IMG/VR virus record: IMGVR_UViG_3300045410_000071
Coordinates: 1 to 39,759 of that record
DNA: 39,759 bases
Reading direction: 5' to 3' (one strand)
Source: a virus
Taxonomy: Duplodnaviria; Caudoviricetes
Below are positions 3,725 through 39,759 of the stretch, one piece after another (the first letter of the stretch is position 1; every line of letters starts with the position of its first letter). The notes under the pieces were generated by a model that worked only from the letters and a program-made list of their open reading frames with translations, was not told the DNA's origin and did not search any database. Made by a program: the position numbers and the translations under genes.

Positions 3725-3778
3725 ATCCTACGGCATCCCGTAATCAGTGCGCAACGGCATCCCGTTACGGAAATCCGT
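3725..3778. promoter_or_regulatory. OR-like operator cluster and putative PR
   Basis: ACGGCATCCCGT at 3730 and 3754, ACGGAAATCCGT at 3767; minus-strand TTGCGC-18-TAGGAT ending 7 nt before cro ATG. Confidence 0.8.
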
Positions 3779-3790
3779 CAATATTCCTAC

Positions 3791-4186
3791 ATGACGGTCG
3801 GCGACAGAATCAAAGAGCGGCTCAGTGAGCTAAATCAGGACGTTAAGTGGCTGCACAGTAGAACGCACATTCCCGTCAGTTCTCTGTACGAGATCATGAA
3901 TGGCCGCATGAAAAGCACTCCGCGGCTGCCAACGATTGCGGCAGCTTTAGGACTGCGCGCCCTTTGGCTAGAACGCAAAACCGGACCACGGCTGGTCAAT
4001 GACACGGACGATCACCCAATTGCTGATTCTCAGTGGCCTTTTCGCTTCGCGCGCTCTCGATGGGATCAGCTTCCTCCACCACAAAGAAAAAAAATCGAGG
4101 GGGTCGTCGAAGAGCTGCTCCGGGCCTACGAGGCCGGCAACCTCCCGGCCGCGGCCAAAAGCCGAGCGACCCGGAAGGCCGGATAA
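3791..4186 (+). CDS. cI: CI-like repressor (XRE HTH, no S24 peptidase domain)
   Basis: MTVGDRIKERL...HIPVSSLYEIMNGRMKSTPRLPTIAAALGLRALWL; divergent from cro across operators; start chosen at ATG 3791. Confidence 0.78.
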   Translation: MTVGDRIKERLSELNQDVKWLHSRTHIPVSSLYEIMNGRMKSTPRLPTIAAALGLRALWLERKTGPRLVNDTDDHPIADSQWPFRFARSRWDQLPPPQRKKIEGVVEELLRAYEAGNLPAAAKSRATRKAG

Positions 4187-4235: not shown

Positions 4236-4601
4236 GTGAAACTCAAGATAAATACGCTGGGTGGTGCGGCCGCGCTCCCCACCGGAACCCTGAGCATAGG
4301 CTTCAAGAATGATCGGGGGGAGCACACGCTGGAGCTGAGCCGAGCCGCACAAGAGCAACTTCTCCTTGCTCTGTTAACCAGTGCGCCCAGTGATCCCACT
4401 GGACCGGCGTTGCGTCACTTCGCACCGAACGGAGTTGGCCGATTCCAGTTAGGTCAAGACGTGGGGCTGTCATTCCTGGTGGCGCGACAAGCCGGAATCC
4501 ACCTGGTGCTGAAGCGTCCTCTTGCCAGTACGGTTCAAAAGTTGATTGAGACATTCGACGATCACTCCACTTGGAATCTGAAAGGACCGACGGCGCACTA
4601 G
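4236..4601 (+). CDS. Hypothetical protein downstream of repressor
   Basis: AGGGG SD, GTG start, 121 aa. Confidence 0.6.
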   Translation: MKLKINTLGGAAALPTGTLSIGFKNDRGEHTLELSRAAQEQLLLALLTSAPSDPTGPALRHFAPNGVGRFQLGQDVGLSFLVARQAGIHLVLKRPLASTVQKLIETFDDHSTWNLKGPTAH

Positions 4602-4625: not shown

Positions 4626-4976
4626 ATGACCGAACAAGACACGGGCGTTACTGCCACGGAGGTATTCACCGTGCTCATTGGCTCGGATGTCTCCGGCAAG
4701 TTGTGGACAGCCGATGCCATAGCACACGAAGGAAAGCTTTGGGTCGTGCCACACTGGAGCGAAGCGCCAGAGCAAAAAATGCGTAGGCCAACGCGAATGA
4801 TCCGATTCGATCATTTGCGGCATCAGGAGCAGGGGGCGCCGTATGCGCATCGATACCTACTAGACGCGTCAATACCAGAACCTGTCCTCGATGGGCGATC
4901 AACCGAAGGATTCGAAGTTCTTTCGGGAGCTGACATAAAAGTCTGGTGCCCGATGCCGAGTCACCGACTGAATTAG
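4626..4976 (+). CDS. Hypothetical protein
   Basis: GAGGGG SD, ATG, 116 aa. Confidence 0.65.
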   Translation: MTEQDTGVTATEVFTVLIGSDVSGKLWTADAIAHEGKLWVVPHWSEAPEQKMRRPTRMIRFDHLRHQEQGAPYAHRYLLDASIPEPVLDGRSTEGFEVLSGADIKVWCPMPSHRLN

Positions 4977-5057
4977 GCACCGCGTATCCTGAAGTCGCTG
5001 GACCCGTCCGGTTGATTTCCCGCAGCTTCTCTAGCGCCCTGATGAACGGTGCGAGAC

Positions 5058-5303
5058 TCACGGCAACAACCCCTGCGTTTTGAGAATCTTTCGCACCGAC
5101 GCTACAAATTCCTCGACGCCTGGCACATCAAGCTTCTGCACCACGAGCTTTTGCGTCTGAGCGTCCAGCAACAGTACTGGCGGATCGTCGTAACCAAGCC
5201 GCTCGTAGTAGGACTTCAGGGATTCAATCTCGCGAGGGCGAGACAGAGCGCTTGCGGCCACCGGCAGCGCGAGCGCGAGGGATAGCAGGGTGCGGCGGTT
5301 CAT
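5058..5303 (-). CDS. Small exported protein made of portal-derived segments (mini-portal mosaic)
   Basis: MNRRTLLSLALALPVAASA signal, then LKSYYERLGYDDPPVLL, DAQTQKLV and LDVPGVEEFVASVRKILKTQGLL, each matching a different part of the portal at 30728-32803. Confidence 0.75.
   Translation of the reverse strand: MNRRTLLSLALALPVAASALSRPREIESLKSYYERLGYDDPPVLLLDAQTQKLVVQKLDVPGVEEFVASVRKILKTQGLLP
5169..5220. repeat. 52-bp direct repeat, copy 1 (copy 2 at 31607-31658 in portal gene)
   Basis: caacagtactggcggatcgtcgtaaccaagccgctcgtagta(g/c)gacttcagg, 51/52 identical. Confidence 0.95.
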
Positions 5304-5310
5304 GCCGCGC

Positions 5311-5340
5311 ATTCTGCGCTTTGCGGGCGCCGGTGCTCAA
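5311..5340 (-). promoter_or_regulatory. Putative sigma70 promoter for the mini-portal gene (leaderless)
   Basis: TTGAGC-18 nt-CAGAAT-7 nt-ATG(5303). Confidence 0.4.
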
Positions 5341-5417: not shown

Positions 5418-5702
5418 TTAATTTAGCGGTTTGCATGAGAATGGCTTTAGACAATCTCGGCCGTTCGTTTCTGCGCAGGCATCCACGTTCAGCCCACTCA
5501 CCATGATCTGGCAGCCTTCGAGATCGTCACCGAAGCCGTGGACAGTTGCTACGTGATCGTTGCCCCACTTGACGACAGCGTAGTCTGTTGATGAACCGAT
5601 CCGGTTTCTCTCGAAGAAATTGGCCGGCTTGTCCAAATTATCAGACGAGCACGCCGTGAGGGTCACTGCTACGGCCACCGCCCGCAAGCAAGCGCTAACC
5701 AT
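5418..5702 (-). CDS. Putative lipoprotein (moron)
   Basis: Hydrophobic stretch ending in lipobox-like LTAC; four further Cys; exact start uncertain (5711-5702). Confidence 0.6.
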   Translation of the reverse strand: MVSACLRAVAVAVTLTACSSDNLDKPANFFERNRIGSSTDYAVVKWGNDHVATVHGFGDDLEGCQIMVSGLNVDACAETNGRDCLKPFSCKPLN

Positions 5703-5937
5703 CACATGCACATCCTGGAGGCTGGTGACAGCGTTTGTTTCGCGAGATGCATGAGTTCCCGCACGCCTTTCCTGTCGTACAGACCTTGCAGCAATACTGA
5801 TTCATGTGGGTCTCGATGCCTAGTAATCGCTGCATGATGGGTGAATGCGGCACTGGAGTTTCCAGCCTGGCATAGTCATCCGCCATCGCGGCCGATGAAC
5901 TGAGCGCCAGCAAGGCGCAAACGATCAGCTTTTTCAT
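5695..5937 (-). CDS. Secreted Cys-rich small protein (moron)
   Basis: Sec signal MKKLIVCALLALSSSAAMA; CCKVCTTGKACGNSCISRNKRCHQPPGCAC; GGAG SD. Confidence 0.75.
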   Translation of the reverse strand: MKKLIVCALLALSSSAAMADDYARLETPVPHSPIMQRLLGIETHMNQYCCKVCTTGKACGNSCISRNKRCHQPPGCACDG

Positions 5938-6010: not shown

Positions 6011-6118
6011 ACGGAACTTCGTATACAAACCAGAATCGTGACCCCGGTCACACAACGGCATCCCGTCGCATTTGAATTACGGAATCCCGTTGACAGTAGA
6101 AACGGCATCCCGTAATGT
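6011..6118 (+). promoter_or_regulatory. OL-like operators and PL-like promoter
   Basis: ACGGCATCCCGT at 6055 and 6102, ACGGAATCCCGT at 6079, degenerate copy at 6011; TTGACA(6090)-17 nt-TAATGT(6113). Confidence 0.85.
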
Positions 6119-6475: not shown

Positions 6476-6651
6476 GCACGCGCGAGGGCGAGACATATTT
6501 GGGGGATGCCGTTTATTGCTCCTTCGATGGCTGGCAGATCTGTCTGCGCACGGGCGACGGCAACAATCAACGCATCTACCTGGAGCCGTCTGTGTATGCG
6601 GCGCTGGTGGCGTATGTCGCAGAGCTGAAAGCGGCTCAGGTGCAGCCGTGA
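6472..6651 (+). CDS. Hypothetical early protein
   Basis: AAGGAG SD; YLGDAVYCSFDG motif; coupled overlaps. Confidence 0.65.
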   Translation: MSTREGETYLGDAVYCSFDGWQICLRTGDGNNQRIYLEPSVYAALVAYVAELKAAQVQP

Positions 6652-9367: not shown

Positions 9368-10962
9368 GCACCGAACTGCAAATGCTGCCGCTGGCGAAGC
9401 TCAAGCTGTCGGCCACCAGCGCGCAGAGCGAACGACGCGCGCATTTCGACCCAGCCGGCATCGCCGAGCTCGCGGAGAGCATCAAGGCCGTCGGCATGCT
9501 GGCGCCGATCGTGGCACGGCCGTGGCACACCGCGGCCGGCCTCAATCATCTCGTGACCGATCCCGACTATGAAGTTGTGGCGGGTGAACGCAGATTGCTC
9601 GCCGCGAAGAAGGCGGGACTCACATCCGTCCCGGTCAGCGTGCGCGAGCTCACGGACGAACAGGTCCTGGAGGTGCAGCTGGTCGAGAACCTGCAGCGCG
9701 AGGACCTGCACGAGCTCGCCGAGGCGGAAGGGTACGAGGCCCTGCAGAAGCTCGGCCACAGCGTCGAGGAAATGGCCGGCAAGGTCGGCAAGTCGAAGGC
9801 GACGCTGTACGCGCGCATGAAGCTGCTCGCGCTGTGCAAGGACGCGCGCAAGGCATTCTATGACGGGACGCTGACCGCATCGGTGGCACTGCTAGTCGCC
9901 CGCATTCCTGATCATAGCTCGCAGCGCGAGGCACTCGAACAGCTGCGTTACGACAGCGACGATGGTGAGTCGATTTCGTACCGGGAGGCCGTCGAATACA
10001 TCCACCGCGAGTTCACGTTCCGTCTCGACCAGGCCGGCTTTCCGACCACGGACGCGACTCTGCTGCCCGCCGCCGGCGCCTGCAGCGCCTGCCCGAAGCG
10101 CACCGGCAACCAGCCCGAGCTCTTCGCCGACATCAAGCGTGGAGACGTCTGCACGGATCCGGTGTGCTTTCGCCAGAAGCGTGAAGCGATCGGGGCGCGC
10201 AAGCTCGCCGAGGCGAAGGCTTCCGGACAGCGCATCATCGAGGGCAAGCAAGCTGCATCGATCACGAAGTACGGCACGCACAGCCTGCAGGACGGGTTCG
10301 TCAAGCTCGATGCTACGTGCTACGACGATCCGAAGAATCGTACCTATCGCCAGTTGCTCGGCAAGCAGGCGACGCCGACGCTCCTGGTGGATCCGAAATA
10401 CGGAGTCATCGAGGTCGCTGAGAAGAAGGACTTGGCGCCGGCGCTCAAGGGGATTCGCGAGCGTTCATTGAACCCGGATGCTGCCCGGGAGAAACGGGCG
10501 AAACTCGAGCGCAGCTTCCGCCAGCAGCTGTACACCACGATTCGCCCCAAACTGCCCGAGAAGCTCGGTCGCACCGAGCTCGAGCATGTCGCGCTGGTGT
10601 TCTTCAAGCGCCTGGAAAACGAAGTCCAGAAGCAAGTTCTCAAGCTGTGGAACTGGGAGCTGGCGACGACCAAGCGCGACGGCTACACGCATACGTCGGC
10701 CGATGTCACGGGCGAACAGCGAGTGCCGAAGCTCAACGACGCCGCGCTTGCCCGGTTCATGCTCGATTGCAGCTACGCGCAGGAGCTGCGCGTGTTTACG
10801 TGGTCGGATGGCAAACCCGAACTCCTCCTGGCGGCCGCGAAGCGGCTGAAGATCGATCCGGAAAAGATCCGCAAGGATCTAGCCGCGGCCGCTAGCGCGA
10901 AGGCCAAGAAGCCGGCGCCGGCGAAGGCCTCGAAGAAGAAGGCCGCGAGGAAGCCGAAGTGA
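9364..10962 (+). CDS. Large ParB/Spo0J-family protein
   Basis: ELAESIKAVGMLAPIVAR, YEVVAGERRLLAA, ENLQREDL, HTH; internal CSACPK...CTDPVC; Lys-rich tail. Confidence 0.88.
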   Translation: MSTELQMLPLAKLKLSATSAQSERRAHFDPAGIAELAESIKAVGMLAPIVARPWHTAAGLNHLVTDPDYEVVAGERRLLAAKKAGLTSVPVSVRELTDEQVLEVQLVENLQREDLHELAEAEGYEALQKLGHSVEEMAGKVGKSKATLYARMKLLALCKDARKAFYDGTLTASVALLVARIPDHSSQREALEQLRYDSDDGESISYREAVEYIHREFTFRLDQAGFPTTDATLLPAAGACSACPKRTGNQPELFADIKRGDVCTDPVCFRQKREAIGARKLAEAKASGQRIIEGKQAASITKYGTHSLQDGFVKLDATCYDDPKNRTYRQLLGKQATPTLLVDPKYGVIEVAEKKDLAPALKGIRERSLNPDAAREKRAKLERSFRQQLYTTIRPKLPEKLGRTELEHVALVFFKRLENEVQKQVLKLWNWELATTKRDGYTHTSADVTGEQRVPKLNDAALARFMLDCSYAQELRVFTWSDGKPELLLAAAKRLKIDPEKIRKDLAAAASAKAKKPAPAKASKKKAARKPK

Positions 10963-11455: not shown

Positions 11456-11971
11456 ATGAGCACCACGGTTCACCACTTCGCCACCTCCTCCTTCGGCCGC
11501 TATCGCCGGGAGTTACATCGCTACTTGATGCGTCGCTTGCGGGAACCGCAGGACGTGGATGACTTGGCGCAATCGGTCTACGAGCGATTGCTGAGATTCG
11601 ATGATGAGAAAGTCGTTCATAAACCCCTCGCCTACCTCTACGGTGTCGCCTCTCACGTCCTGGCCGACTTCCGCATTGAGGAGGAGCGCGATCACGAGCA
11701 CGTCGTCGCGCATGACGAGTCCGAGGACTGGGCGGAATGCCCGTCCTGCATCCTGCCAGACGACCTGGCCGACCGCCTGAACCTGCAGCAGCAGATCGAC
11801 TTGGCGATAGCGCAATTGCCGCCGACGCACGCCGCTGTGCTGTTATCGCACAAGCGTGACGGACTTTCATACGAGGAGGTGGCCGAGAAACTCGGCCTGA
11901 GTATCCATACCGTGGAAAAGTACGTCACGCAGGCGAAGGCCAGGCTGAGGACGATGACATGGGAACGTTAG
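11456..11971 (+). CDS. ECF-type sigma-70 factor (FecI-like)
   Basis: Region 2 ELHRYLMRRL..DVDDLAQSVYERLL..PLAYLYGVASH; region 4 LPPTHAAVLLSHKRDGLSYEEVAEKLGLSIHTVEKYV; GGGAG SD. Confidence 0.9.
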   Translation: MSTTVHHFATSSFGRYRRELHRYLMRRLREPQDVDDLAQSVYERLLRFDDEKVVHKPLAYLYGVASHVLADFRIEEERDHEHVVAHDESEDWAECPSCILPDDLADRLNLQQQIDLAIAQLPPTHAAVLLSHKRDGLSYEEVAEKLGLSIHTVEKYVTQAKARLRTMTWER

Positions 11972-13358: not shown

Positions 13359-13562
13359 ATGCTGGTGCTTACGCAGCAAGAACTGGTCGAGTTGACGGGC
13401 AAAGTCCGCCCGAGCGCCCAAGCGCGCGCGCTAGATTTCATGAGCATCCCCCACCGCCCCCGCCCGGACGGCTCCCTGGCGGTCCTGCGCATCCACGTCG
13501 AGACATCGGAAGGGCGACCGAGCGGTGCTAGACTGCCGCCGGAACCACAGTTGCAGCCCTAG
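13359..13562 (+). CDS. Putative excisionase (DUF4224-like)
   Basis: LTQQELVELTGKVRPSAQARAL..IPHRPRPDGSLAV; directly upstream of integrase. Confidence 0.8.
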   Translation: MLVLTQQELVELTGKVRPSAQARALDFMSIPHRPRPDGSLAVLRIHVETSEGRPSGARLPPEPQLQP

Positions 13563-13572
13563 CAGACGCCAA

Positions 13573-14577
13573 GTGACACGACCCCGCAAGAAGGATCGGC
13601 ACCTGCCCGCGTGCGTGTATCCGAAGCACGGGGCTTACTGGTACGTCAAAAGCGGAAAGTGGCAGCGGCTCCCTCCAACCGGTCCGTCGACACTCGTTAG
13701 CGCACTTGAAGCCTATGCCGCGCTGGTCGAGGCGCCGAAAGGGGGCATGCCGGCGCTCATCGATGAGGCGCTCGTGGTGATCTGCAAGCGCGTCGCGGCA
13801 TCGACCGCCGATCAGTACGAGGATGCGGCGAAGATCCTGAAGCGCAAGCTCGTGCAGTTCGCCCCGGGCCAGGTGCGTCCGGTGCATGTGGTGGCGCTCA
13901 GGCAGTCGCTCGTGAACACCCCGAACATGGCGAATCGCTGCCTGTCGGTGTTGCGCTCGGTATTCGACTACGCGCTCGAGCAGCAGCGGGTGGAGAGCAA
14001 TCCGGCGATCGGCGTGAAGCGCCTCAAGGAGAAGAAGCGCGACCGGCTCATCACGCCGCAGGAGTACGTCGCGATCTACGCCGAGGCGGGACCGCGGCTC
14101 CAGGTCATCATGGACCTGTGCATCCGCACCGGCCAGCGCATTACGGCAGTACTGCGCATCCGGCGGGCCGACCTCACCGAGGAAGGTATCCGCTTCGGTA
14201 GGCACAAGACCGATGGTAAGGGCGTCACCGCCTGGACCCCCGAGCTGCGGGCGGTGGTCGAGCGCGCTAAGACGCTGGACGGTAAGATCTCGGCCCTCAC
14301 GCTTCTGCGCAATAAGCGTGGCAAGGCGCCCGACTATCGCACCGTGCGCGATCAGTGGGACGAGGCGGTACGGGCGGCGGCCGTGAGCGATGCGCACCTG
14401 CACGACCTACGTGCGGTGGCCGCCACCTGGGCGAAGCGGCAGGGGCTGAACGCCACCGCGCTGCTCATGCATTCGAGTCCCGCGCAGACCGAGCGCTACC
14501 TTCGAGGCAGGGAAGAACCGGTGATCGAAGGCCCGAGTTTTGGGAGCGTCATCGATGTCGCGTCTGAGAAAAGTTGA
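13573..14577 (+). CDS. int: Tyrosine integrase
   Basis: Catalytic set TGQR...HKT...HDLRA...LMHS...TERY; N-terminal LPACVYPKHGAYWYV segment; start taken at GTG 13573. Confidence 0.93.
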   Translation: MTRPRKKDRHLPACVYPKHGAYWYVKSGKWQRLPPTGPSTLVSALEAYAALVEAPKGGMPALIDEALVVICKRVAASTADQYEDAAKILKRKLVQFAPGQVRPVHVVALRQSLVNTPNMANRCLSVLRSVFDYALEQQRVESNPAIGVKRLKEKKRDRLITPQEYVAIYAEAGPRLQVIMDLCIRTGQRITAVLRIRRADLTEEGIRFGRHKTDGKGVTAWTPELRAVVERAKTLDGKISALTLLRNKRGKAPDYRTVRDQWDEAVRAAAVSDAHLHDLRAVAATWAKRQGLNATALLMHSSPAQTERYLRGREEPVIEGPSFGSVIDVASEKS

Positions 14578-15082
14578 TACCGATCTCCCGCCGCGGGTGT
14601 ATCCCAAGCATGGACGGTTCTGGTATGTGCTCGGCGGAAAGTGGACAGGGCTATCGACGGATCGTGCGACGGCCATCGAAGAGGGCAAGCGGCTCAACGA
14701 AATCCGGCATCCTGGCTGGAGCCCCGCACTAGAGGCCGCCCTTGGTTTGACATTCAAGTCGCGGCGATCGAACGCAAAAAGCCGCAGTATCGAATTCTCG
14801 ATTGGCTGGCCGGAAGTTCTAGCGCTTGCCAGTGCTGCGCGTTGGCGCTGTGCGGTGACGCGAATTCCTTTCTCGCTGGAGAAAACGGACGGCCGCAGGC
14901 GAGCCCCTTTCTGCCCCAGCATTGACCGAATTAAGTGCGGTGCCGGATACGTGAGCGGCAACGTGCGCGTGGTCTGTTTGGCGACAAACTTTGCCATGAA
15001 CGAGTGGGGTGATGCAGTGATGCAGAAGTTGGCGGAAGGGTGGCTGAAAGCCGAGTTTCAGCGCCGCGTATTAGACGTCTGA
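14555..15082 (+). CDS. HNH-like endonuclease with integrase-like N-terminal domain
   Basis: N-terminus LPPRVYPKHGRFWYVLGGKW parallels Int; C-terminus RCAVT...PSIDRI...GYVSGNVRVVC..TN.AMN. Confidence 0.7.
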   Translation: MSRLRKVDTDLPPRVYPKHGRFWYVLGGKWTGLSTDRATAIEEGKRLNEIRHPGWSPALEAALGLTFKSRRSNAKSRSIEFSIGWPEVLALASAARWRCAVTRIPFSLEKTDGRRRAPFCPSIDRIKCGAGYVSGNVRVVCLATNFAMNEWGDAVMQKLAEGWLKAEFQRRVLDV

Positions 15083-16954: not shown

Positions 16955-19138
16955 TCACACCACCAGATAAGTGAAGGAGAAGTACAGGCCGGTCGAGACG
17001 GCGCCGGTGGACTGGAAAGTAAACGTTGCGGCGTCGTTTATCGCATCGCCGCGTATGAGAACCGAGTTCGGTGGAGGCCCGTAGTTAGCAAAACCGGTGC
17101 CGGCTAGTTGCCCCAAAGACGCTAAGTTGGAGGCTACTGGCAGGGTTATGCGGAAACTTGTTAACGCCGCTGCTGTCGGATCTACGGTTATTTCGCCTGA
17201 CACGGTCACGACGTTACCGACGCGAAGCCATTGGCACACTTGGGGTGTAACCGAATCCAGGTTGCCTATGACGGTTGCTGTTGGCGTATACGTTCCGGCA
17301 TTGAGCACATGGCCGTTGAATGTATTCGCGGTGATGGCGTCGGCCGCAAGCGTGCCCGTGAACGTCGGCGACGCCGAGCGCACCGTCGAACCCGTCCCGG
17401 TGCTCGTAGTCGTACCAGTCCCGCCGCGTGCAACGGGCAACGTGCCAGAAGTAATGATGCCGGCGTCGCGGACGTTCGTGCCGTTGACGGTGACGGTGGT
17501 CGCCGCAAACGCGATACTAGGAACAGTCGTACCGGAACGCGTGACGAGGATAGGTGTTGCACCGACGCCGTCCACATCCGTTCTTGTGAGCAATGACCAC
17601 GAAGACGCAGCGACGTTCATCAGCCAGTATTTTTCATTTACCCCCGCGCCGGTTATCTCAAACGCCATATTGGTCGAAGAGGCGTTTTGCAGCTTTATCG
17701 CGCGGGCTCCCGTCGCGTTAGCCAGGAAAGTGTGCGAGCCGGTAGAGGTTGGCGCGCCGGAAAGCGTTATCGTGGTCGCAGCGAGGTTGATGCTGTCTAT
17801 GGTGTTGTTGCTACGATCAACAGCCATGAACGACGTAGAGCTGCTGCCGGTGTCGTTGACCGCACGCATAGTGAACTGCTCGCCACTGGCTACCGCCCAC
17901 CACCTGCCGTTATTGGCCGCCGCGTCGGTTTCCACCCACGCGAAAAGGGGCGTCGTATTCTGGATGGTGATCCCTAGCCCGTGGGTGAAGATGTGCTGCC
18001 CGGTCCACGTCGGCGCAATGGACTGCGAGAGCGCGGGGGCCGCGTCCGAGCGCATGGCGGTAGTAGCAGAGCCGTTGCTGGCGGCTAGCCCAATAGTCGC
18101 AGTTGGATTCGCAAACGCAGTCACAGTAGACAACAGCGGATTGCCGTTCCACGTCAACGCGGTGGATGCGAGCGCGATGCTGCTAACCGTCGTACCGGAC
18201 CGGGTGACATCCATCCAGTTGGTTCCGCCACCCCCGGCGTCCGTTGCGGTCTGAAATCGCCGAATCGACCCAGTCACGAACTCCCGCCATCTGCCGCTAT
18301 CCGCGGGTGCATCGGTCTCGACTAACATGTAGCCGGGAGTAGCGCTGGAGAGTATCAACGGGAAATTCAACCCGCTGGCGACTCCGGTAAATACGTTGTT
18401 GCTCGCCGCGAACGTGTGCAGCCCCGTCCAGGTGGGCGTGAACGATTGGTCTATAGCTAGCGTACCCGTCGTAACAATCGGGTCCGGGCTTGCGCTGATG
18501 CCGGTGCCGGCGGCAATGCTCGTCACAGTGCCCGTGCCGCCCCCGCCGGAGGCGTTTATCGTCAGCACGTTAGGCACGGAAGTATCGAACGCGATGTTGG
18601 TGCCGGCGTCCAGGCGAAACGATGCCGGGAAACTCGCAGTCTCGTCCGACTCGGTGATGAACGTGAACGCGGCGAAGTCGCTAGGCACCAAGTACCCGGC
18701 GTCGTTTACCAGCTCCGACACGTTGTCACCAGGCTGCAGCGATGAGTCGGCGAGCGCAAGTGACGCAAGCACTGCCGCACTCAGATCTGCGCTGATCGCA
18801 GGCGTGCCGTCGTAGGTGAACTCGATGGTCGCGGTGTTGGTCAGAATCCCGCCGACCGCGTCCTGCGCAGCCTCGATGAAGTCGTTGATATACGTGTTGT
18901 CGATCGGGGAGAAGGCGAGCGCGGTACCGTCTCGGTGCAGGACCGCCTTGTCGGCCGAGGCAACAATGTCCGCAGGGTCCCCGATGTTGTTCGCGCTGCG
19001 GCCGATGACAGACAGCGCAGCACTGTCGCGCAGCTTGACATCCGTAACTGCGTTGGCAACGATGGTTGCGACTGTACTGTCAGGATTGATCGTCAGATCG
19101 CCCAGCTTGCGCTGTCCCTGTGCGTCATAGATGCGCAT
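16955..19138 (-). CDS. Tail fibre / receptor-binding protein
   Basis: 727 aa, G/T/A/S rich, internal repeats, GTLPVARGGTG and GTYTPT...WLRVGNVVTV fibre-type motifs. Confidence 0.8.
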   Translation of the reverse strand: MRIYDAQGQRKLGDLTINPDSTVATIVANAVTDVKLRDSAALSVIGRSANNIGDPADIVASADKAVLHRDGTALAFSPIDNTYINDFIEAAQDAVGGILTNTATIEFTYDGTPAISADLSAAVLASLALADSSLQPGDNVSELVNDAGYLVPSDFAAFTFITESDETASFPASFRLDAGTNIAFDTSVPNVLTINASGGGGTGTVTSIAAGTGISASPDPIVTTGTLAIDQSFTPTWTGLHTFAASNNVFTGVASGLNFPLILSSATPGYMLVETDAPADSGRWREFVTGSIRRFQTATDAGGGGTNWMDVTRSGTTVSSIALASTALTWNGNPLLSTVTAFANPTATIGLAASNGSATTAMRSDAAPALSQSIAPTWTGQHIFTHGLGITIQNTTPLFAWVETDAAANNGRWWAVASGEQFTMRAVNDTGSSSTSFMAVDRSNNTIDSINLAATTITLSGAPTSTGSHTFLANATGARAIKLQNASSTNMAFEITGAGVNEKYWLMNVAASSWSLLTRTDVDGVGATPILVTRSGTTVPSIAFAATTVTVNGTNVRDAGIITSGTLPVARGGTGTTTSTGTGSTVRSASPTFTGTLAADAITANTFNGHVLNAGTYTPTATVIGNLDSVTPQVCQWLRVGNVVTVSGEITVDPTAAALTSFRITLPVASNLASLGQLAGTGFANYGPPPNSVLIRGDAINDAATFTFQSTGAVSTGLYFSFTYLVV

Positions 19139-19463: not shown

Positions 19464-19781
19464 TTAGATCCCCGCATGGCCGAGCTGCGCCGGATAGCCC
19501 GCATCCGCTGAAGTGCCAGCGCTGGCACTGATGCGCAACTGCCCGTCCACAGTGTCATCGAGCGTAATGTTGGTGCCGGCGTCCAGGCGGCGTGAATGCG
19601 GCAGCAAGCTCGTCTCGTTCGTCGCCGTGATGAACGACGCGCCAAGCAGGTTCGATGGGATCGACTGCGCGGCGCTCACCAGGCGCCGAAAGAAGTCATA
19701 CCACGGCTGCGTCGCGCGACCTTGCGCGTCGATGAGCTGCGCTTGGGCGGCAGGCAGAATGCGCCGATCGGGCGTCGTCAT
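19464..19781 (-). CDS. Tail accessory protein
   Basis: LIDAQGRATQPWYDFFRRL; shares an RLDAGTNI module with the tail fibre. Confidence 0.6.
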   Translation of the reverse strand: MTTPDRRILPAAQAQLIDAQGRATQPWYDFFRRLVSAAQSIPSNLLGASFITATNETSLLPHSRRLDAGTNITLDDTVDGQLRISASAGTSADAGYPAQLGHAGI

Positions 19782-29199: not shown

Positions 29200-30138
29200 C
29201 TAGCGGCGTGCGGCTTTCTGTGACCGCCAATGAGCAATGCGTTCGGCCGTCGACATGTCGTCGATACTTTTCGAGGACTTGCCGGAGCCGTTGATGCTCG
29301 GAGGCGGTGCGGGTGTTTTCGTCACTTTGGGAGGAAGCTCTTCTTGCGTTGAGCCGGTCAGGCGCGTCTCGATCGTCGCGAGTCCACGGGCCATTTCCAG
29401 CTTGGATTTGCCGCGCAGCTTGTCGAGTTCGCCGGGGTGGTGCACCAGGTAATGAGCGATGTCGAGATCCTTCTCGTGCCCCGTGAGCAGGTCGATGACC
29501 TCCTGCGGCACGTCCACCTTGGCGGACACCATCTCATCCCACGCGCCTTCGCCGGCTCGCTTCTCGAATTCGCTTTTGCGCTTCTCGAACGCGGTGCGAG
29601 CTTCCTCGGCCGTTTTCGCTTGCCGCTGCCGATCGTTCTCCGCGTCACGATCCTTGAGGGCTTGTTGGACGCCCTCTCGGATCATGTGCGCGTTGTAACG
29701 CTCGATGTCGTAATCGAAGTCGGCCAGCGACTTCGGCTGCGCAGCTACGGCCGGCGCTTTGGGCTGATCTGTTTTCGCAGGCTCAGCGGGCGCCGTACGC
29801 ACGCTGCGTACTTCTTCGAGGGTCTCGGTGCGGCCAGCTCTACGGCCTTTTTCCTCCGCCCTTACCAGGCGTTTCTTCATCCAAGGAGGAATGGTTTTCT
29901 CGTCTGGATGGTCCGCTGAGGAATCAGCGTCGTCTTCTTTGCCCGCAGAAGTAGCGTTGGAGTCCGGCTTTACGTCAGCTTTTGGGGGCTTCGGTGGCGG
30001 CGCCGTGGCCGCTTTTTCTTTCAGGGTGTTTATAAAACCCGTGTCCCGGGATTTCATCTCTGGCTTGTCATCAGCCTTGGGGGCTGGCGCGTTGGCCTGA
30101 GTCTCCGTGGCGGACTCCACGTTGGCTTCGATATTCAT
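29200..30138 (-). CDS. Scaffolding protein
   Basis: Charged helical protein before coat; C-terminal TKTPAPPPSI..G...DDMST. Confidence 0.8.
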   Translation of the reverse strand: MNIEANVESATETQANAPAPKADDKPEMKSRDTGFINTLKEKAATAPPPKPPKADVKPDSNATSAGKEDDADSSADHPDEKTIPPWMKKRLVRAEEKGRRAGRTETLEEVRSVRTAPAEPAKTDQPKAPAVAAQPKSLADFDYDIERYNAHMIREGVQQALKDRDAENDRQRQAKTAEEARTAFEKRKSEFEKRAGEGAWDEMVSAKVDVPQEVIDLLTGHEKDLDIAHYLVHHPGELDKLRGKSKLEMARGLATIETRLTGSTQEELPPKVTKTPAPPPSINGSGKSSKSIDDMSTAERIAHWRSQKAARR

Positions 30139-30731
30139 GCCGCCTCTCTTGTGATGTCAAGTTTTTTTGACGGTCGTCCGAGCTTTTTACCGTCAAGCGG
30201 TTTATGTCCTAAATGCGTCCAGGTCTTCCCGCTAAGGATTTGGCTGATATGCCGCCGGCTTCCTCCAAGCCAGTCCGCTATCTGCCGCTGCGTACATCCG
30301 CTTCGCCGCAGATCAAAGATGCGCTCAATGTCGGTATCGTTGAACTTAGCACTGTGGTTGCGTTCCCCGCGCAAGCTTGTTCCATGCCTGACCTTATCTG
30401 CTTCATTGTTAGTTCTAGTATCCCAGCGCAGATTTTCCCGGATGTTATTGCCTTTGTCGCCATCATTGTGGCAGCCATGCATTCCTTCAGGACGAGGTCC
30501 GACAAACGCTTTGAGCACGAGATGATGAACCCGACGAGTTAGCGACGTGCCACGTGACAGATCAACAATTACATAGTCACGTTTGTCTTTCCCCTGTTTC
30601 AGAACACGCCCTTTGATTACTGCACGGCCGTCAGCGCGCATACGATCCAACGATCGCACACGCCCAAGGTCGCTGACCTCGTAAATGCCTTCGAAGTCAA
30701 CGACGGGAAGCCATCTTTCTTGTTCACTCAT
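30135..30731 (-). CDS. NUMOD4-HNH homing endonuclease
   Basis: ERWLPVVDFEGIYEVSDLGRVRS; VHHLVLKAFVG..CHNDG...NLRW..NEAD. Confidence 0.9.
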   Translation of the reverse strand: MSEQERWLPVVDFEGIYEVSDLGRVRSLDRMRADGRAVIKGRVLKQGKDKRDYVIVDLSRGTSLTRRVHHLVLKAFVGPRPEGMHGCHNDGDKGNNIRENLRWDTRTNNEADKVRHGTSLRGERNHSAKFNDTDIERIFDLRRSGCTQRQIADWLGGSRRHISQILSGKTWTHLGHKPLDGKKLGRPSKKLDITREAA

Positions 30732-32803
30732 TGCGATGGCGCTCCAGGCGCAGGCGTTCCAGGAGCCGGCCCGAAGATCGACGGCCCGATCGGCACCGTC
30801 GGCAATCCCTCGGCGATGCGCTCAATCGATTCGGCTGTCTGCGCGCGCGTCTTCTCAACCTGGGCCGGCGTCAGTGCAACGATCTGCTGCGTCTGTGCGT
30901 CGGTCTTTCGTGCCTGAGCGCCCTTCAGTTCTACGTCAGCGACGATCTTGGGATCAGGCTGCGGGGGTGGTTGCGGCGGATCTTTCTCACCTGGTTCCAA
31001 CAGCCCCTCTTTGACCAACACCTTGCGACAAGCTGCCAGGAATTCATCCATGCCTGGGACGTCCAAATTGCGAAACAACAAGTACTGCGCCAGCATGCCA
31101 AACGGTCCGGGCGTGCGCGCCATTGCTTCCGCAGCCTCCGCGACTTCCATGCGCTGCGTCTCGAAGCTCTTGCCGGTGGAAACGACGACGTCGTACTTGC
31201 CGCGCGAAAGGTCGTTGATGATCTTCACCTCGCCGGTCTGCATGTCGCGGATCGGGCGATTGACCTTGACGAATTTCGCCTTGCCATCCTCCCCGAGGAT
31301 GCGCAGGGTGCGCGTCGCGTCGTACACCTTCGGAATCAGGTCGACCAGGATGGCGCCGGTGAACTCCAGCGCTTTGAGGTGATTGTCGACGTACACGTAG
31401 TTGGAGATATCTCCCTCTTGCTTGCGCGCGAGAATGGCGCGGCCGGAGGTCTCGTTGCTTTGCGCGCCAAGTGATGCATCGTAGATGCCCATGGTCGCCT
31501 TGATCTCATCCACCGCGAGCGCCGAGACGTTCGCGAACGCGGCCGGGAACTGCGCCGCTGGCTCGCGCGTCGGCCGAGCGGCTGGCGAGGAAGGGTCGAC
31601 GTTGTACAACAGTACTGGCGGATCGTCGTAACCAAGCCGCTCGTAGTACGACTTCAGGCCCTCGATCATCTTCGGCGTGGCCGTGAGCGGCGAATTCGGC
31701 ATCTTCGCCACGATTTCGATCAGCGTCGACAACTCGAAGTTGTGGATCATCTGCGCATCGCGGCCGAAGCGCGTCATGCCGCTGTAGTACTGCTTGCCGT
31801 CGACCGTGAGCAGCTCGCCCCAGTTGAGCACCACGGGGAAGTACTTGCCGGGCCACTCCACCGGCTTGGTGAGCTTGTCGCGCCCTGAGATCAGGCAGCA
31901 CTTGACGATCTGCCGATCAATCTCGCGCGTGTCGGCGATCGTGATGCCTTCCGCAGCCGCCTCATCCGCGATGGGATCGAAGTCCGTCGCGTCGACAACC
32001 GTGCCGTCGTTGAGCAGGTAGATAACGCGCTTCTCGACTTCCTTGTACCAATACTTCGCGATGCGCACCGTGTCCTCGTACCACCAGTCTTTGTCGAGCG
32101 CGGTGGAGCCGGTGGCGGTGAAATCGACCAGTTGCTTGCCTGGGTACAGGCGCTTGAATTCGGAGCGCGAAATCAGCTCGGACACAAAGCAGTAGCGCGC
32201 ATCGATGCGGTGAAAATCGCGTGCCGCCGGGTCGAAGGTCACGGTGAACGGATCTTCGATCGGATCGATCCTGAGCACCTTGTCGAACGAGTTGGGCTTG
32301 AGCTGTCTCGCCGCTGCGTCGGCCCCGTAGCTTTGACCCTCCTCCACCTCATCGTTCGCGTAGGCGGTGGTGACTTGCCACGCCCCCACCCCTCCCGCGC
32401 AGGCCCAGGTGAAACCGCTGTCGTAGGCGATCTTGGCTTTGGAGTCCGAACTGTTCTGGATGGCGCGGATGATGCCGTTGTAGATCTCTGCCGTGTCGAC
32501 ATCGCCATCCTCGGCGGGGCGCACGTTGATCTGCGGGCGGTTCTGCAGCTGCTGCCCGGTCACGCGGCGAATCATCTGGCGCTGCCGATTGAACTCGTAG
32601 CACGGCCGGCGCCGACGCTTGGCGGTCAGGTGCTGATCCCACTGATGTCCTGGGACAAGCGCGAACTTGTAGTCCTCTACCGCCTTCTTGCGCTGCTCCG
32701 AGGCGTGCGTGTCAGCCTCCTCGAAGCGCTCGATCGCCTCGCGCACGAAGTCCTTGTCGCTCGGCGTCGGGATCTTGGTGTCGGTGTCGTCGCGCTTGGC
32801 CAT
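30728..32803 (-). CDS. Portal protein (P22-like)
   Basis: 691 aa; GHQWD..RRRPCYEFN, RDAQMIHN, SNETSGRAILARKQEGD, NDLSRGKYDVVV..G..FETQR. Confidence 0.92.
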   Translation of the reverse strand: MAKRDDTDTKIPTPSDKDFVREAIERFEEADTHASEQRKKAVEDYKFALVPGHQWDQHLTAKRRRRPCYEFNRQRQMIRRVTGQQLQNRPQINVRPAEDGDVDTAEIYNGIIRAIQNSSDSKAKIAYDSGFTWACAGGVGAWQVTTAYANDEVEEGQSYGADAAARQLKPNSFDKVLRIDPIEDPFTVTFDPAARDFHRIDARYCFVSELISRSEFKRLYPGKQLVDFTATGSTALDKDWWYEDTVRIAKYWYKEVEKRVIYLLNDGTVVDATDFDPIADEAAAEGITIADTREIDRQIVKCCLISGRDKLTKPVEWPGKYFPVVLNWGELLTVDGKQYYSGMTRFGRDAQMIHNFELSTLIEIVAKMPNSPLTATPKMIEGLKSYYERLGYDDPPVLLYNVDPSSPAARPTREPAAQFPAAFANVSALAVDEIKATMGIYDASLGAQSNETSGRAILARKQEGDISNYVYVDNHLKALEFTGAILVDLIPKVYDATRTLRILGEDGKAKFVKVNRPIRDMQTGEVKIINDLSRGKYDVVVSTGKSFETQRMEVAEAAEAMARTPGPFGMLAQYLLFRNLDVPGMDEFLAACRKVLVKEGLLEPGEKDPPQPPPQPDPKIVADVELKGAQARKTDAQTQQIVALTPAQVEKTRAQTAESIERIAEGLPTVPIGPSIFGPAPGTPAPGAPSQ
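31607..31658. repeat. 52-bp direct repeat, copy 2
   Basis: 51/52 identical to 5169-5220. Confidence 0.95.
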
Positions 32804-36279: not shown

Positions 36280-36948
36280 TTACTTTACGTGAGCCCAAGT
36301 GCGGCCGATCCTCGCTGATTTGACCGTCATGCGATCTACGTTCAGCAGCAGACCAAGCTGCGCATCGGTCAACTGAGATTGCCGGATAAGCCTTACGCTT
36401 TCGGCCGTCAGTTTCGGCTTCATTGGGCCCTTCTTCGGTAGCAACGTGATCGGCGCAACACTGATATGCGCCCAGCGTTGCCCATTTCTCGCCTGCTTTA
36501 TCACGTGCCAGCTCACGCCGAACTTCTCAGCCCAATGACGATCCGGCATTGGCGTCAGTCTGATTTCTGTGACCTGTTGTTCGGACAGATGCGCGCCGTT
36601 TTTTTCGCCACGCGATTGTGTTCCATGCATGATGCGGTCAGCGGCGTTTTCAGTGGGCGTGCCCCATTCCAAATTAGCGAGCCTTGGATCGGTGCGAACG
36701 CCGTTCAGGTGCCTTGCCTCCATGCCCCGCGGACACGGCCCACGGAATGCGAAGAGCACTAATCGGTGAACTAGCACGGTCTGGCCTCGGTTCTCCTTCC
36801 ACAGAGAAACCCTCAAATAGCCATCGCGCTTGTTGCCGGTCAGTTTCTTCAAAACGCCAGCGGTCGTGCGAACTCGCCCCAGATCAGAGACTTCGTATAA
36901 CCGCTCGTACCCCACTGTCGGACGCCAAAGCTCCGTTAATCCATCCAC
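36280..36948 (-). CDS. NUMOD4-HNH homing endonuclease
   Basis: LWRPTVGYERLYEVSDLGRVR; VHRLVLFAFRG..RHLNG...NLEW..ENAAD; start uncertain. Confidence 0.88.
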   Translation of the reverse strand: MDGLTELWRPTVGYERLYEVSDLGRVRTTAGVLKKLTGNKRDGYLRVSLWKENRGQTVLVHRLVLFAFRGPCPRGMEARHLNGVRTDPRLANLEWGTPTENAADRIMHGTQSRGEKNGAHLSEQQVTEIRLTPMPDRHWAEKFGVSWHVIKQARNGQRWAHISVAPITLLPKKGPMKPKLTAESVRLIRQSQLTDAQLGLLLNVDRMTVKSARIGRTWAHVK

Positions 36949-37061
36949 GTAACTTTCCCTCCGAGACGCCTGCAATCCTCTTCGACCACGTGCCGCTGCC
37001 GGCGCAGCTCATCGCCGTACGTGCGCCGCCACCAGGCGTGCAGTGCGCGCAGCCAGTTCAC
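36936..37061 (-). CDS. Hypothetical 41-aa protein
   Basis: GTGA overlap with upstream nuclease gene. Confidence 0.45.
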   Translation of the reverse strand: MNWLRALHAWWRRTYGDELRRQRHVVEEDCRRLGGKVTWMD

Positions 37062-38168: not shown

Positions 38169-39759
38169 CTAAGTCTCGGCCACTGGTTGGTACGTCTTCG
38201 CCGTCAGCCCGAACGTCCAGGCAACGGCTTCGCTAGCGGTCTTCACCTCCGGCGGCACGCGCAGGAAATAATCCTTGATCGAGCCGTCCGGCTCGGGCGT
38301 GGAGTTGCGCACCTCGACCATCAAGAGATCGCTGTCGTCGGGCCGCTCCTTGCGCCACAGCTTGCCGCGATTGTCCTCGTGCACCAGCGTTGCGCCGGCG
38401 TCGTGCAGGTAGCGTGCATGCCCATAGCGCGCGATCATCACGCGGCGCACTTCCGCATTGCGCTCCGAGTCGATGAGCGCCACGGTAATCCGCTCCGGCT
38501 GCTCGATGATCCAGCCGGGCACGCGCACGCCGTGGATCGCGTAGACGCCCCAGCCGTCCGGCCACGCAACCGCAGGACCATCGGCGCAGTGCAAGCGATG
38601 CGAGCCCCAGCCGCGCGGACGCTCGGGGTTGACGAGCTCGCGATGGATGACGGTCGGCCGCTCGCACACCATCACGAAGTCACGATGCGGATACCACCAG
38701 CAGGCCGATTGCATCGTCTGTTCGTAGGAGATGCCGCGCGACCAAAGATCGTTTGGCAACTCCAGGTTGCAGACTTCGCGAAAGAACGAGGTGAAGGCAC
38801 CGCCCCAGTACCACCCGCTCACCCAGAACTGGCCGCCGATGTAGTTGCTCCAGCCGCGGCGGATTACTTCCATGACGGCTGCATGGATCTCATTCGCTTG
38901 TGCGCCGCCAACCGCGCCGCCAACCGCGTCGCCAACCGCGTCGCCAACCGCGCCGTCAACCGCGCCGCGAACCGCGACGCGAACCGCGCCGCCAACCGCG
39001 CCGCGAACCGCGCCGTCAACCGCGCCGCCAACCGCGCCGCGAACCGCGACGTCAACCGCGTCGCCAACCGCGCCGCCAACCGCGTCGCCAACCGCGCCGT
39101 CAACCGCGTCGCCAACCGCGCCGCCAACCGCGTCGCCAACCGCGCCGTCAACCGCGTCGCCAACCGCGACGCGAACCGCGCCGTCAACCGCGTCGCCAAC
39201 CGCGCCGTCAACCGCGCCGCGAACCGCGACGTCAACCGCGTCGCCAACCGCGCCGCCAACCGCGTCGCCAACCGCGCCGTCAACCGCGTCGCCAACCGCG
39301 ACGCGAACCGCGCCGTCAACCGCGTCGCCAACCGCGCCGCCAACCGCGCCGCCAACCGCGCCGCCAACCGCGCCGCGAACCGCGACGTCAACCGCGTCGC
39401 CAACCGCGCCGCCAACCGCGTCGCCAACCGCGCCGCCAACCGCGACGCGAACCGCGCCGTCAACCGCGTCGCCAACCGCGCCGTCAACCGCGTCGCCAAC
39501 CGCGCCGCCAACCGCGCCGCGAACCGCGCCGTCAACCGCGCCGCCAACCGCGCCGCGAACCGCGACGTCAACCGCGTCGCCAACCGCGCCGCCAACCGCG
39601 TCGCCAACCGCGCCGCCAACCGCGTCGCCAACCGCGCCGCGAACCGCGCCGTCAACCGCGCCGCGAACCGCGACGCGAACCGCGCCGCCAACCGCGCCGC
39701 GAACCGCGCCGTCAACCGCGCCGCCAACCGCGCCGCGAACCGCGACGTCAACCGCGTCG
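38169..39759 (-). CDS. 3' part of DUF6745-like protein (repeat region plus C-terminal domain)
   Basis: Repeat frame runs AVGG-AQANEIHAAVMEVIRRGW...CWWYPH..CERP..RLHCADGPAVAWPDGWGVYAIHGVRVP..ERNAEVRRVMI..NSTPEPDG..YFLRVPP..AVAWTFG. Confidence 0.85.
   Translation of the reverse strand, partial: DAVDVAVRGAVGGAVDGAVRGAVGGAVRVAVRGAVDGAVRGAVGDAVGGAVGDAVGGAVGDAVDVAVRGAVGGAVDGAVRGAVGGAVGDAVDGAVGDAVDGAVRVAVGGAVGDAVGGAVGDAVDVAVRGAVGGAVGGAVGGAVGDAVDGAVRVAVGDAVDGAVGDAVGGAVGDAVDVAVRGAVDGAVGDAVDGAVRVAVGDAVDGAVGDAVGGAVGDAVDGAVGDAVGGAVGDAVDVAVRGAVGGAVDGAVRGAVGGAVRVAVRGAVDGAVGDAVGDAVGGAVGGAQANEIHAAVMEVIRRGWSNYIGGQFWVSGWYWGGAFTSFFREVCNLELPNDLWSRGISYEQTMQSACWWYPHRDFVMVCERPTVIHRELVNPERPRGWGSHRLHCADGPAVAWPDGWGVYAIHGVRVPGWIIEQPERITVALIDSERNAEVRRVMIARYGHARYLHDAGATLVHEDNRGKLWRKERPDDSDLLMVEVRNSTPEPDGSIKDYFLRVPPEVKTASEAVAWTFGLTAKTYQPVAET
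38902..39759. repeat. 12-bp coding tandem repeat, right part (~71 units)
   Basis: Same unit family as 1-158, with higher-order blocks. Confidence 0.97.

Follow-up and report, generated by a model that had tools for sequence, protein, structure and literature searches.

The 39,759-base virus record IMGVR_UViG_3300045410_000071, which we analyzed from end to end and refer to as the window, comes from a sediment phage and contains on its minus strand a short open reading frame (ORF) that is a real, unusual mosaic gene of an apparently undescribed class. In this mini-gene a twin-arginine-like leader is followed by three pieces (A, B and C) of a P22-like portal protein, of which piece A is an almost fresh copy of its source in the intact portal gene of the same phage. 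We found no description in the literature of export-tagged genes built from virion fragments; supplements of anti-defence screens could include such genes, and 10.1101/2023.04.06.535777, in the excerpt available, treats host decoy immunity and not export-tagged virion-fragment genes.

Origin of the three portal pieces

The mini-gene frame is open for 81 amino acids (aa) from ATG 5303 and for 84 aa from ATG 5312, with the former the likelier start because the upstream ATG overlaps the -10 box of a candidate promoter; residue numbers here follow the 84-aa form (P0001). Leader and pieces share one stop-free frame, in which the pieces abut or lie one codon apart, and nucleotide identity to the phage's own portal gene is 98% for A, 79% for B and 59% for C. 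Their positions in the portal domains (Table 1) were assigned by alignment to the P22 portal with the domain bounds of PMC5290284, which, like the other papers cited by accession or DOI, was available as an excerpt.

Residues 32-48 of the mini-protein (piece A) are identical to portal residues 383-399 at 17 of 17 positions, and the underlying DNA at 5169-5220 agrees with 31607-31658 at 51 of 52 nucleotides (nt; E=2e-20), the single difference being synonymous. This is the only repeat of at least 40 nt and at least 95% identity in window positions 201-38850. Piece A matches its own portal gene at 50/51 nt compared to 36-45/51 nt in 44 other portal loci, a difference large enough that it must derive from this portal or a near-identical one. 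Among the portal loci compared it appears to be the most conserved motif, but this impression carries a bias, as the motif itself served to find the loci.

Piece B is shorter, aligning residues 50-57 with portal 635-642 at a BLOSUM score of 32 that was reached by none of 1000 shuffled portals, and its DNA matches in frame at 19/24 nt, again reached by none of 1000 codon shuffles. A window-wide DNA scan also gave one unrelated 19/24 match, and it is the portal-restricted test that supports the piece. We rejected the alternative that piece B is a chance match and the ORF a collinear internal deletion of the portal, since residues 54-60 read as portal 573-579 score -2 bits, below all 30 portals. 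Together with the shuffle tests, this indicates that B is a separate piece and that the order A-B-C is shuffled.

Piece C aligns residues 61-83 with portal 580-602 (14/23 aa, 41/69 nt, tblastn E=5e-7) and probably extends to residues 58-84 and portal 577-603. It is no closer to its own portal than to 39 other portal loci, which range over 36-45/69 nt and 9-16/23 aa. A preliminary description of this DNA had proposed a signal and three pieces of the phage's own portal, joined out of order in a single frame. The leader, the three pieces and their shuffled order are borne out by these comparisons, and origin from the phage's own portal is clear in the case of A alone, with the same origin likely in the case of B.

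A portal profile covers the mini-protein only at profile positions 357-386 and 555-587 of 676, and the full portal architecture of wing, stem, stalk and crown (about 600 aa) is absent from it. Although the P22-like portal (PF16510; PDB 7SFS, 3LJ5) is the source of all three pieces, the mini-protein holds only about 50 of its 691 residues, out of order, and cannot form a portal.

The differences in pieces B and C are mostly synonymous, with proportions of synonymous (pS) and nonsynonymous (pN) change of 0.58 and 0.11 for B and of 0.76 and 0.29 for C (residues 61-83). When drift was simulated from the phage's own portal segment to the 28 differences seen in C, 14 of 23 residues were retained in 0 of 5000 trials, and a stop arose in 57%. 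At 5 of 24 positions (residues 61-84) piece C carries residues absent from all 30 portals while retaining the family motif, suggesting that it may have evolved outside portal constraints.

We considered whether the mosaic could be an assembly chimera, a concern raised in the preliminary description, and found this unlikely, since no break interrupts the portal across the repeat, pieces B and C have diverged, and contigs of a sequencing run show two exits from the shared sequence. In these contigs 42 shared nt form one unit with a depth of 41.7, leading into the mini-gene and into the portal at depths of 15.7 and 17.2. The contigs are from the single run with this DNA, possibly the source of the window, of which 57% was read; because the records read did not extend to the left-hand contigs and the contigs do not phase the repeat, phasing depends on the assembly and the intact portal.

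A single-sequence model of the mature chain predicts a compact beta-alpha-beta-beta-alpha unit (predicted local distance difference test, pLDDT, 79.9; predicted template modelling score, pTM, 0.50), and the portal model has low confidence around piece A. Fold searches of the mini-protein model gave nothing clear (Foldseek best E=0.62; VIA best Z 4.3, with a root-mean-square deviation of 3.4 over 57 residues), and a complex prediction of the mature chain with the portal scored 0.02. A weak likeness to the C-terminal half of the thioredoxin fold can serve as a lead only (DsbH E=0.12; Atlas features 0.77-0.80); membership of the thioredoxin fold was rejected, as the required CxxC is missing from a mini-protein without cysteine.

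Leader, promoter and parallel genes in other phages

Tat (twin-arginine translocation) substrates carry a twin arginine close to the N-terminus and, after it, a hydrophobic stretch. The mini-gene leader has both, starting with MNRRTLL (N-R-R-T-L-L) and continuing with 17 uncharged residues of mean hydropathy 1.84, and G or C occupies the third codon position (GC3) in 16 of its 19 codons. The twin-arginine-type signal of the preliminary description is thus partly upheld: motif and hydrophobic stretch are present, and Tat signal models (PF10518 and the NCBIfam equivalents) gave no match to the mini-gene, with other leader ORFs matching PF10518 only below its cut-off. We also rejected derivation of the leader from a decayed portal helix (360-369), a match whose score is reached by 181 of 300 shuffles. 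The spacer between leader and piece A scores -8 bits against the portal profile over residues 23-31 and +1.3 bits over residues 26-31. Separately, 15 nt of the spacer (5231-5245) match a PL-operon gene exactly at 6481-6495, read on the opposite strand, at borderline chance level (E=0.068).

The promoter candidate of the preliminary description is present directly upstream (Table 1). A rule describing it, formulated after the site had been noticed, applies to 1 of 1076 ATGs in the window, that of the mini-gene, and to 30 of 22085 ATGs in 21 relatives. A stock promoter scan of the window did not report the site, and an operator palindrome scan found no CI operator near it. The position of the promoter-like site suggests a leaderless mRNA with ATG 5303 at +1.

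No whole-length homologue of the mini-protein was found in any database searched. IMG/VR yielded 44 loci and no whole-length relative, 43 of the loci lying in long portal frames and one in a frameshifted portal. A set of 5.8 billion proteins returned only the mini-protein itself and, with the piece alignment, itself and two portal fragments, while 1.84 billion representatives added to the self-match just one portal and a spurious repeat protein (P0005). INPHARED gave no match, metagenomes (6 of 64 parts scanned) gave one portal and no whole-length relative, and GTDB gave nothing in 600 pattern-matched stretches and one portal in a later search. A portal profile, which as a positive control recovered the mini-gene from the window, found no second portal piece in 49 related records (of 79 loci; 12 records at least 90% complete), nor did a self-copy scan detect portal pieces in small ORFs from 21 relatives. 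Because these relatives share structural genes but not the accessory region that holds the mini-gene, their lack of it is weak evidence. The preliminary description had proposed to look for homologues that retain the signal and mosaic order and follow their cognate portal; none with the same mosaic was found, and support for a selected gene type comes from the in-frame joining and from recurrence of the same design in other phages.

This recurrence emerged from a pattern for the first seven codons of the leader, which gave 84 matches in 83 IMG/VR loci, 33 of them ORFs of 50-140 aa with a hydrophobic leader. Five of the 33 carry identifiable pieces of capsid or other long phage proteins (Table 1), each behind an RRTFL motif as compared to RRTLL in the mini-gene. 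Three of the 33 match their own locus at E<=1e-3, one only as a tandem paralogue (L179), versus 2 of 165 shuffles. Whole-record searches for L247, L223 and L226 gave no own source. PHROGs is poorly sensitive to such pieces, detecting the mini-gene's own at E=0.35. A search with leader residues 1-42 returned only the mini-gene itself, and fuller-leader patterns matched 0 and 1 loci. The mini-gene clearly belongs to a leader-plus-piece class by design, and not by demonstrated homology.

Three of the ORFs encountered in these searches have features of their own. L223 (9745-10020) and L228 share a near-identical 26-residue leader in front of wholly different mature parts, in both of which terminase-like motifs were seen by eye and not confirmed. 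L133 (8947-9162, in G022) is a 71-aa ORF near terminase genes with no Tat leader, whose first 35 residues resemble the start of a 404-codon ORF of the same phage, the size of the capsid gene in this group (E=5e-5).

Possible functions of the mini-protein

The reading that we tentatively favour is that the mini-protein is a Tat-tagged bait, which would bind a cytoplasmic defence protein that recognises portal and either tether it at the membrane or export it. Portal triggers the defence systems Avs4, Avs11 and SpbK (PMC13581612, PMC13728456), which represent the pressure to which a portal bait would be a response. From its own, putatively CI-independent promoter the mini-gene would be expressed already in the lysogen, before portal appears. 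Its pieces may have been captured or refreshed repeatedly by short-homology recombination, the phage encoding an Erf-like annealing protein and an exonuclease, and their differing identities fit capture at different times or from different donors. The predicted leader would then target the mini-protein to Tat, the bait would hold a portal sensor at the membrane or carry it out, and the real portal would be shielded during lytic growth. Tat translocates folded proteins and can export a partner that lacks a signal (PMC4273604), which would explain a Tat instead of a Sec leader and is in keeping with a protein that binds its target in the cytoplasm first. With Tat substrates and hitchhiker systems such as HybOC and PaoABC (PF10518; PMC4273604) the mini-protein has in common an N-terminal twin arginine, a hydrophobic stretch, an A-x-A end and a small chain predicted to fold; it differs in its RRTLL in place of RRxFL and in a passenger that is a portal patchwork and not a host enzyme, and its export is predicted only.

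Several observations weigh against this bait reading. Avs sensors recognise whole folds through extended interfaces and not short motifs (PMC13581612), the portal regions that supplied the three pieces lie far apart, and piece B is helical in the portal model and a hairpin in the mini-protein model. Binding to the bait might trigger the sensor and not block it. The leader lacks the consensus Phe and is missed by the Tat hidden Markov models, and since Tat substrates span about 20-70 Å (PMC4273604), a large sensor may be too big for export. The mini-gene being a singleton, selection is not measurable on orthologues, and the pS and pN of piece C against other portals (0.76 and 0.29) resemble portal-to-portal values (0.76 and 0.24), so that they are equally in line with recent copying of an unsampled portal. 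Finally, 28 of the 33 leader ORFs have no identifiable piece of a long phage protein, five of the 33 having been searched against whole records.

No fragment-based portal decoy appears in the excerpts of PMC13581612 and PMC13728456 on portal-sensing defences. The SpbK inhibitor Nip described there blocks the NADase domain and, in those excerpts, is not described as a portal copy. A doubtful extension of the bait reading is an adaptive cassette at the protein level, in which pieces of the phage's own virion genes would be captured serially behind a Tat leader, would age like spacers (98%, 79% and 59% from the leader to the end) and would remove immune sensors or rival virion subunits by Tat hitchhiking. 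Most core virion proteins, including portal, are sensed by bacteria and hard for phages to alter; if true, a class of genes that attaches copied virion pieces to an export leader would give phages a general means of counter-defence, or a weapon against other phages, that can be retargeted. The mini-gene is unusually easy to test: it has 81 codons, the gene that it copies lies in the same genome, one of the pieces is nearly unchanged, and portal-sensing defences can be assayed in E. coli. It is also an example of small new genes originating when short stretches of a phage's own genes are captured.

Lysogen defence by interference with virion assembly is a rather unlikely alternative. Here portal-like surfaces of the mini-protein would capture the portal subunits, terminase or adaptor of superinfecting relatives, which would then be trapped or exported. 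This reading suits the location of the gene in the interval from the cI operon to PL, away from any CI operator, and piece A maps to the stalk, which binds the large terminase and gp4 in P22 (PMC5290284). Prophages are also known to block virion assembly with Tai systems (PMC11364771). However, piece A is identical in amino acids to the phage's own portal, so that self-poisoning would be expected on induction; PL points away from the gene, leaving no evident Tai-like antisense shut-off in lytic growth; and the pieces are short (8-27 aa) compared to large oligomer interfaces. The Tai/Tab tail-assembly inhibitors of prophages and satellites resemble the mini-gene as small accessory genes of temperate elements with possible anti-assembly action from the lysogen. 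They differ in targeting tail assembly and, in the excerpt of PMC11364771, are not described as virion-protein copies or as export-tagged, and some have an antidote gene, none of which was identified here. Within PHROGs, Pfam and NCBIfam, and without PADLOC or an alignment to Tai sequences themselves, the mini-gene had no family match.

We also consider it unlikely that the mini-gene is an unselected relic of illegitimate recombination, in frame by luck and silent or inert. Its singleton status in all searches, the 49 portal relatives with no second portal piece and the possibility that piece C is a recent copy from an unsampled portal would all agree with a relic. Such an origin nevertheless requires three portal pieces to have landed in one frame behind a coding-like leader and a promoter-like site, and it leaves aside that the same design recurs with other proteins; the relatives, which do not share the accessory region, say little.

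Decidedly unlikely is periplasmic superinfection exclusion, in which an exported mimic of the portal lumen and barrel would catch the ejection proteins with which related podophages build their DNA channel. The export-type leader, two neighbouring ORFs with signal-like N-termini and the P22-like ejection genes of the phage are consistent with this idea, as is the storage of ejection proteins in the portal lumen (10.64898/2026.09.03.749273), and P22 SieA blocks this step (PMC10883804). SieA likewise belongs to a P22-like phage and is an envelope-directed accessory protein that may act at DNA entry, but the mini-gene matches no such family, its mature chain is portal-derived and only its leader is hydrophobic. 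Searches of PHROGs, Pfam and NCBIfam found no similarity to a known exclusion protein, and the capsid and immunoglobulin (Ig)-domain pieces of the parallel genes have no obvious role at this step. Furthermore, lumenal ejection proteins are described as disordered (10.64898/2026.09.03.749273), leaving a specific binding patch conjectural.

It is improbable that the exported mini-protein is a released signal that primes or trips the virion-sensing defences of neighbouring cells: it pairs an export leader with pieces of a known defence trigger, and its A-x-A site suggests cleavage, but its neighbourhood yielded neither an uptake route nor a receptor gene, and known portal sensors are cytoplasmic and read folds. 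An effect at the RNA level, whether through cI-operon read-through yielding 52 nt antisense to portal mRNA or through a copy that baits guide RNAs, would use the near-exact 52-nt copy and the lack of a detected terminator at 4976-5058, and is very improbable given that B and C preserve protein over nucleotide similarity and that folding of the RNA surrounding the copy is unremarkable (z-scores -0.7 to 1.0). Some probability is also left for functions beyond these.

Genomic setting and additional features of the window

Profile and family searches of the window proteins identify the phage as a temperate podophage of P22-like type. It carries an integrase, cI/cro/cII-like regulators, an Erf-like annealing protein and an exonuclease, together with genes for terminase, portal, capsid, adaptor, head closure and ejection. 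Operator palindromes on both sides of the mini-gene (Table 1) confirm the location given in the preliminary description, an accessory region between the cI operon and PL. There the mini-gene converges on the cI operon and lies downstream of two same-strand ORFs with signal-like N-termini; the ORF at 5418-5711 has no detected relatives, and neither upstream ORF was found in the relatives compared.

Table 1. Positions of the mini-gene, its source sequences and surrounding features in the window, and parallel genes in other records.
Feature	Position	Strand	Description
Mini-gene, 81 aa	5058-5303	-	Open frame from ATG 5303
Piece C	5061-5141	-	Portal 577-603 (probable extent); end of crown, about P22 portal 557-583; diverged
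Piece B	5142-5165	-	Portal 635-642; barrel base, about P22 portal 608-615
Piece A	5169-5220	-	Near-exact portal 383-399; stalk/clip, about P22 portal 359-373
Nine-codon spacer	5220-5246	-	Last six residues weakly like portal 377-382
Twin-arginine-like leader	5247-5303	-	RRTLL, hydrophobic stretch, A-x-A end; export predicted
Candidate sigma-70-type promoter	5311-5340	-	-35 TTGAGC 5335-5340, 18-nt spacer, -10 CAGAAT 5311-5316, 7 nt to ATG 5303
Intact P22-like portal gene	30728-32803	-	Pfam P22_portal E=5e-166; profile spans portal without a stop
Portal source stretches	31607-31658 (A), 30995-31075 (C), 30878-30901 (B)	-	Sources of the three pieces
OR operators	3730-3778	+	Operator palindrome cluster
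cI-like helix-turn-helix gene	3791-4186	+	Converges on mini-gene
Two more genes on cI-operon side	4236-4601, 4626-4976	+	Converge on mini-gene
Lipoprotein-like ORF	5418-5711	-	Signal-like N-terminus; weak matches to signal region only
Cys-rich ORF	5695-5937	-	Signal-like N-terminus; weak matches to signal region only
OL operators	6055, 6079, 6102 (cluster 6055-6113)	+	Operator palindromes
PL-like promoter	TTGACA 6090-6095, TAATGT 6113-6118	+	Read by eye
L247 (other record)			Pfam GP7 capsid above cut-off, E=4e-7, two stretches
L242 (other record)			Piece of own major head protein, E=2e-4 to 6e-4
L220 (other record)			74% copy of own adjacent Ig-domain protein
L228 (other record)	9748-10020		Piece of own 374-aa ORF, E=7.5e-5; source ORF without informative family name
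L188 (other record)			Two pieces of own 784-codon frame, swapped order; source without informative family name

Outside this region, the sole GTDB match to the piece A motif (L128) is a portal on an uncultured Sinobacteraceae contig, a weak hint to the host group. HNH endonuclease genes at 30135-30731 and 36280-36975 are related (37% identity), one of them directly after the portal gene. Two further cases of internal similarity were seen: the integrase frame at 13444-14574 and the adjacent endonuclease frame at 14525-15079 have similar N-terminal stretches of about 65 aa (43% identity, E=6e-7), and a small tail-region ORF at 19464-19781 repeats a 63-aa segment of a downstream 727-aa protein (16955-19138) at 41% identity. 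The window also encodes a sigma-factor-like phage gene at 11456-11971 (PHROG 1740, E=3e-16). A 12-nt tandem array at 38902-39759 and 1-158, adjoining a DUF6745 gene at 38169-38873, runs off both ends of the record, which was probably broken inside the array.
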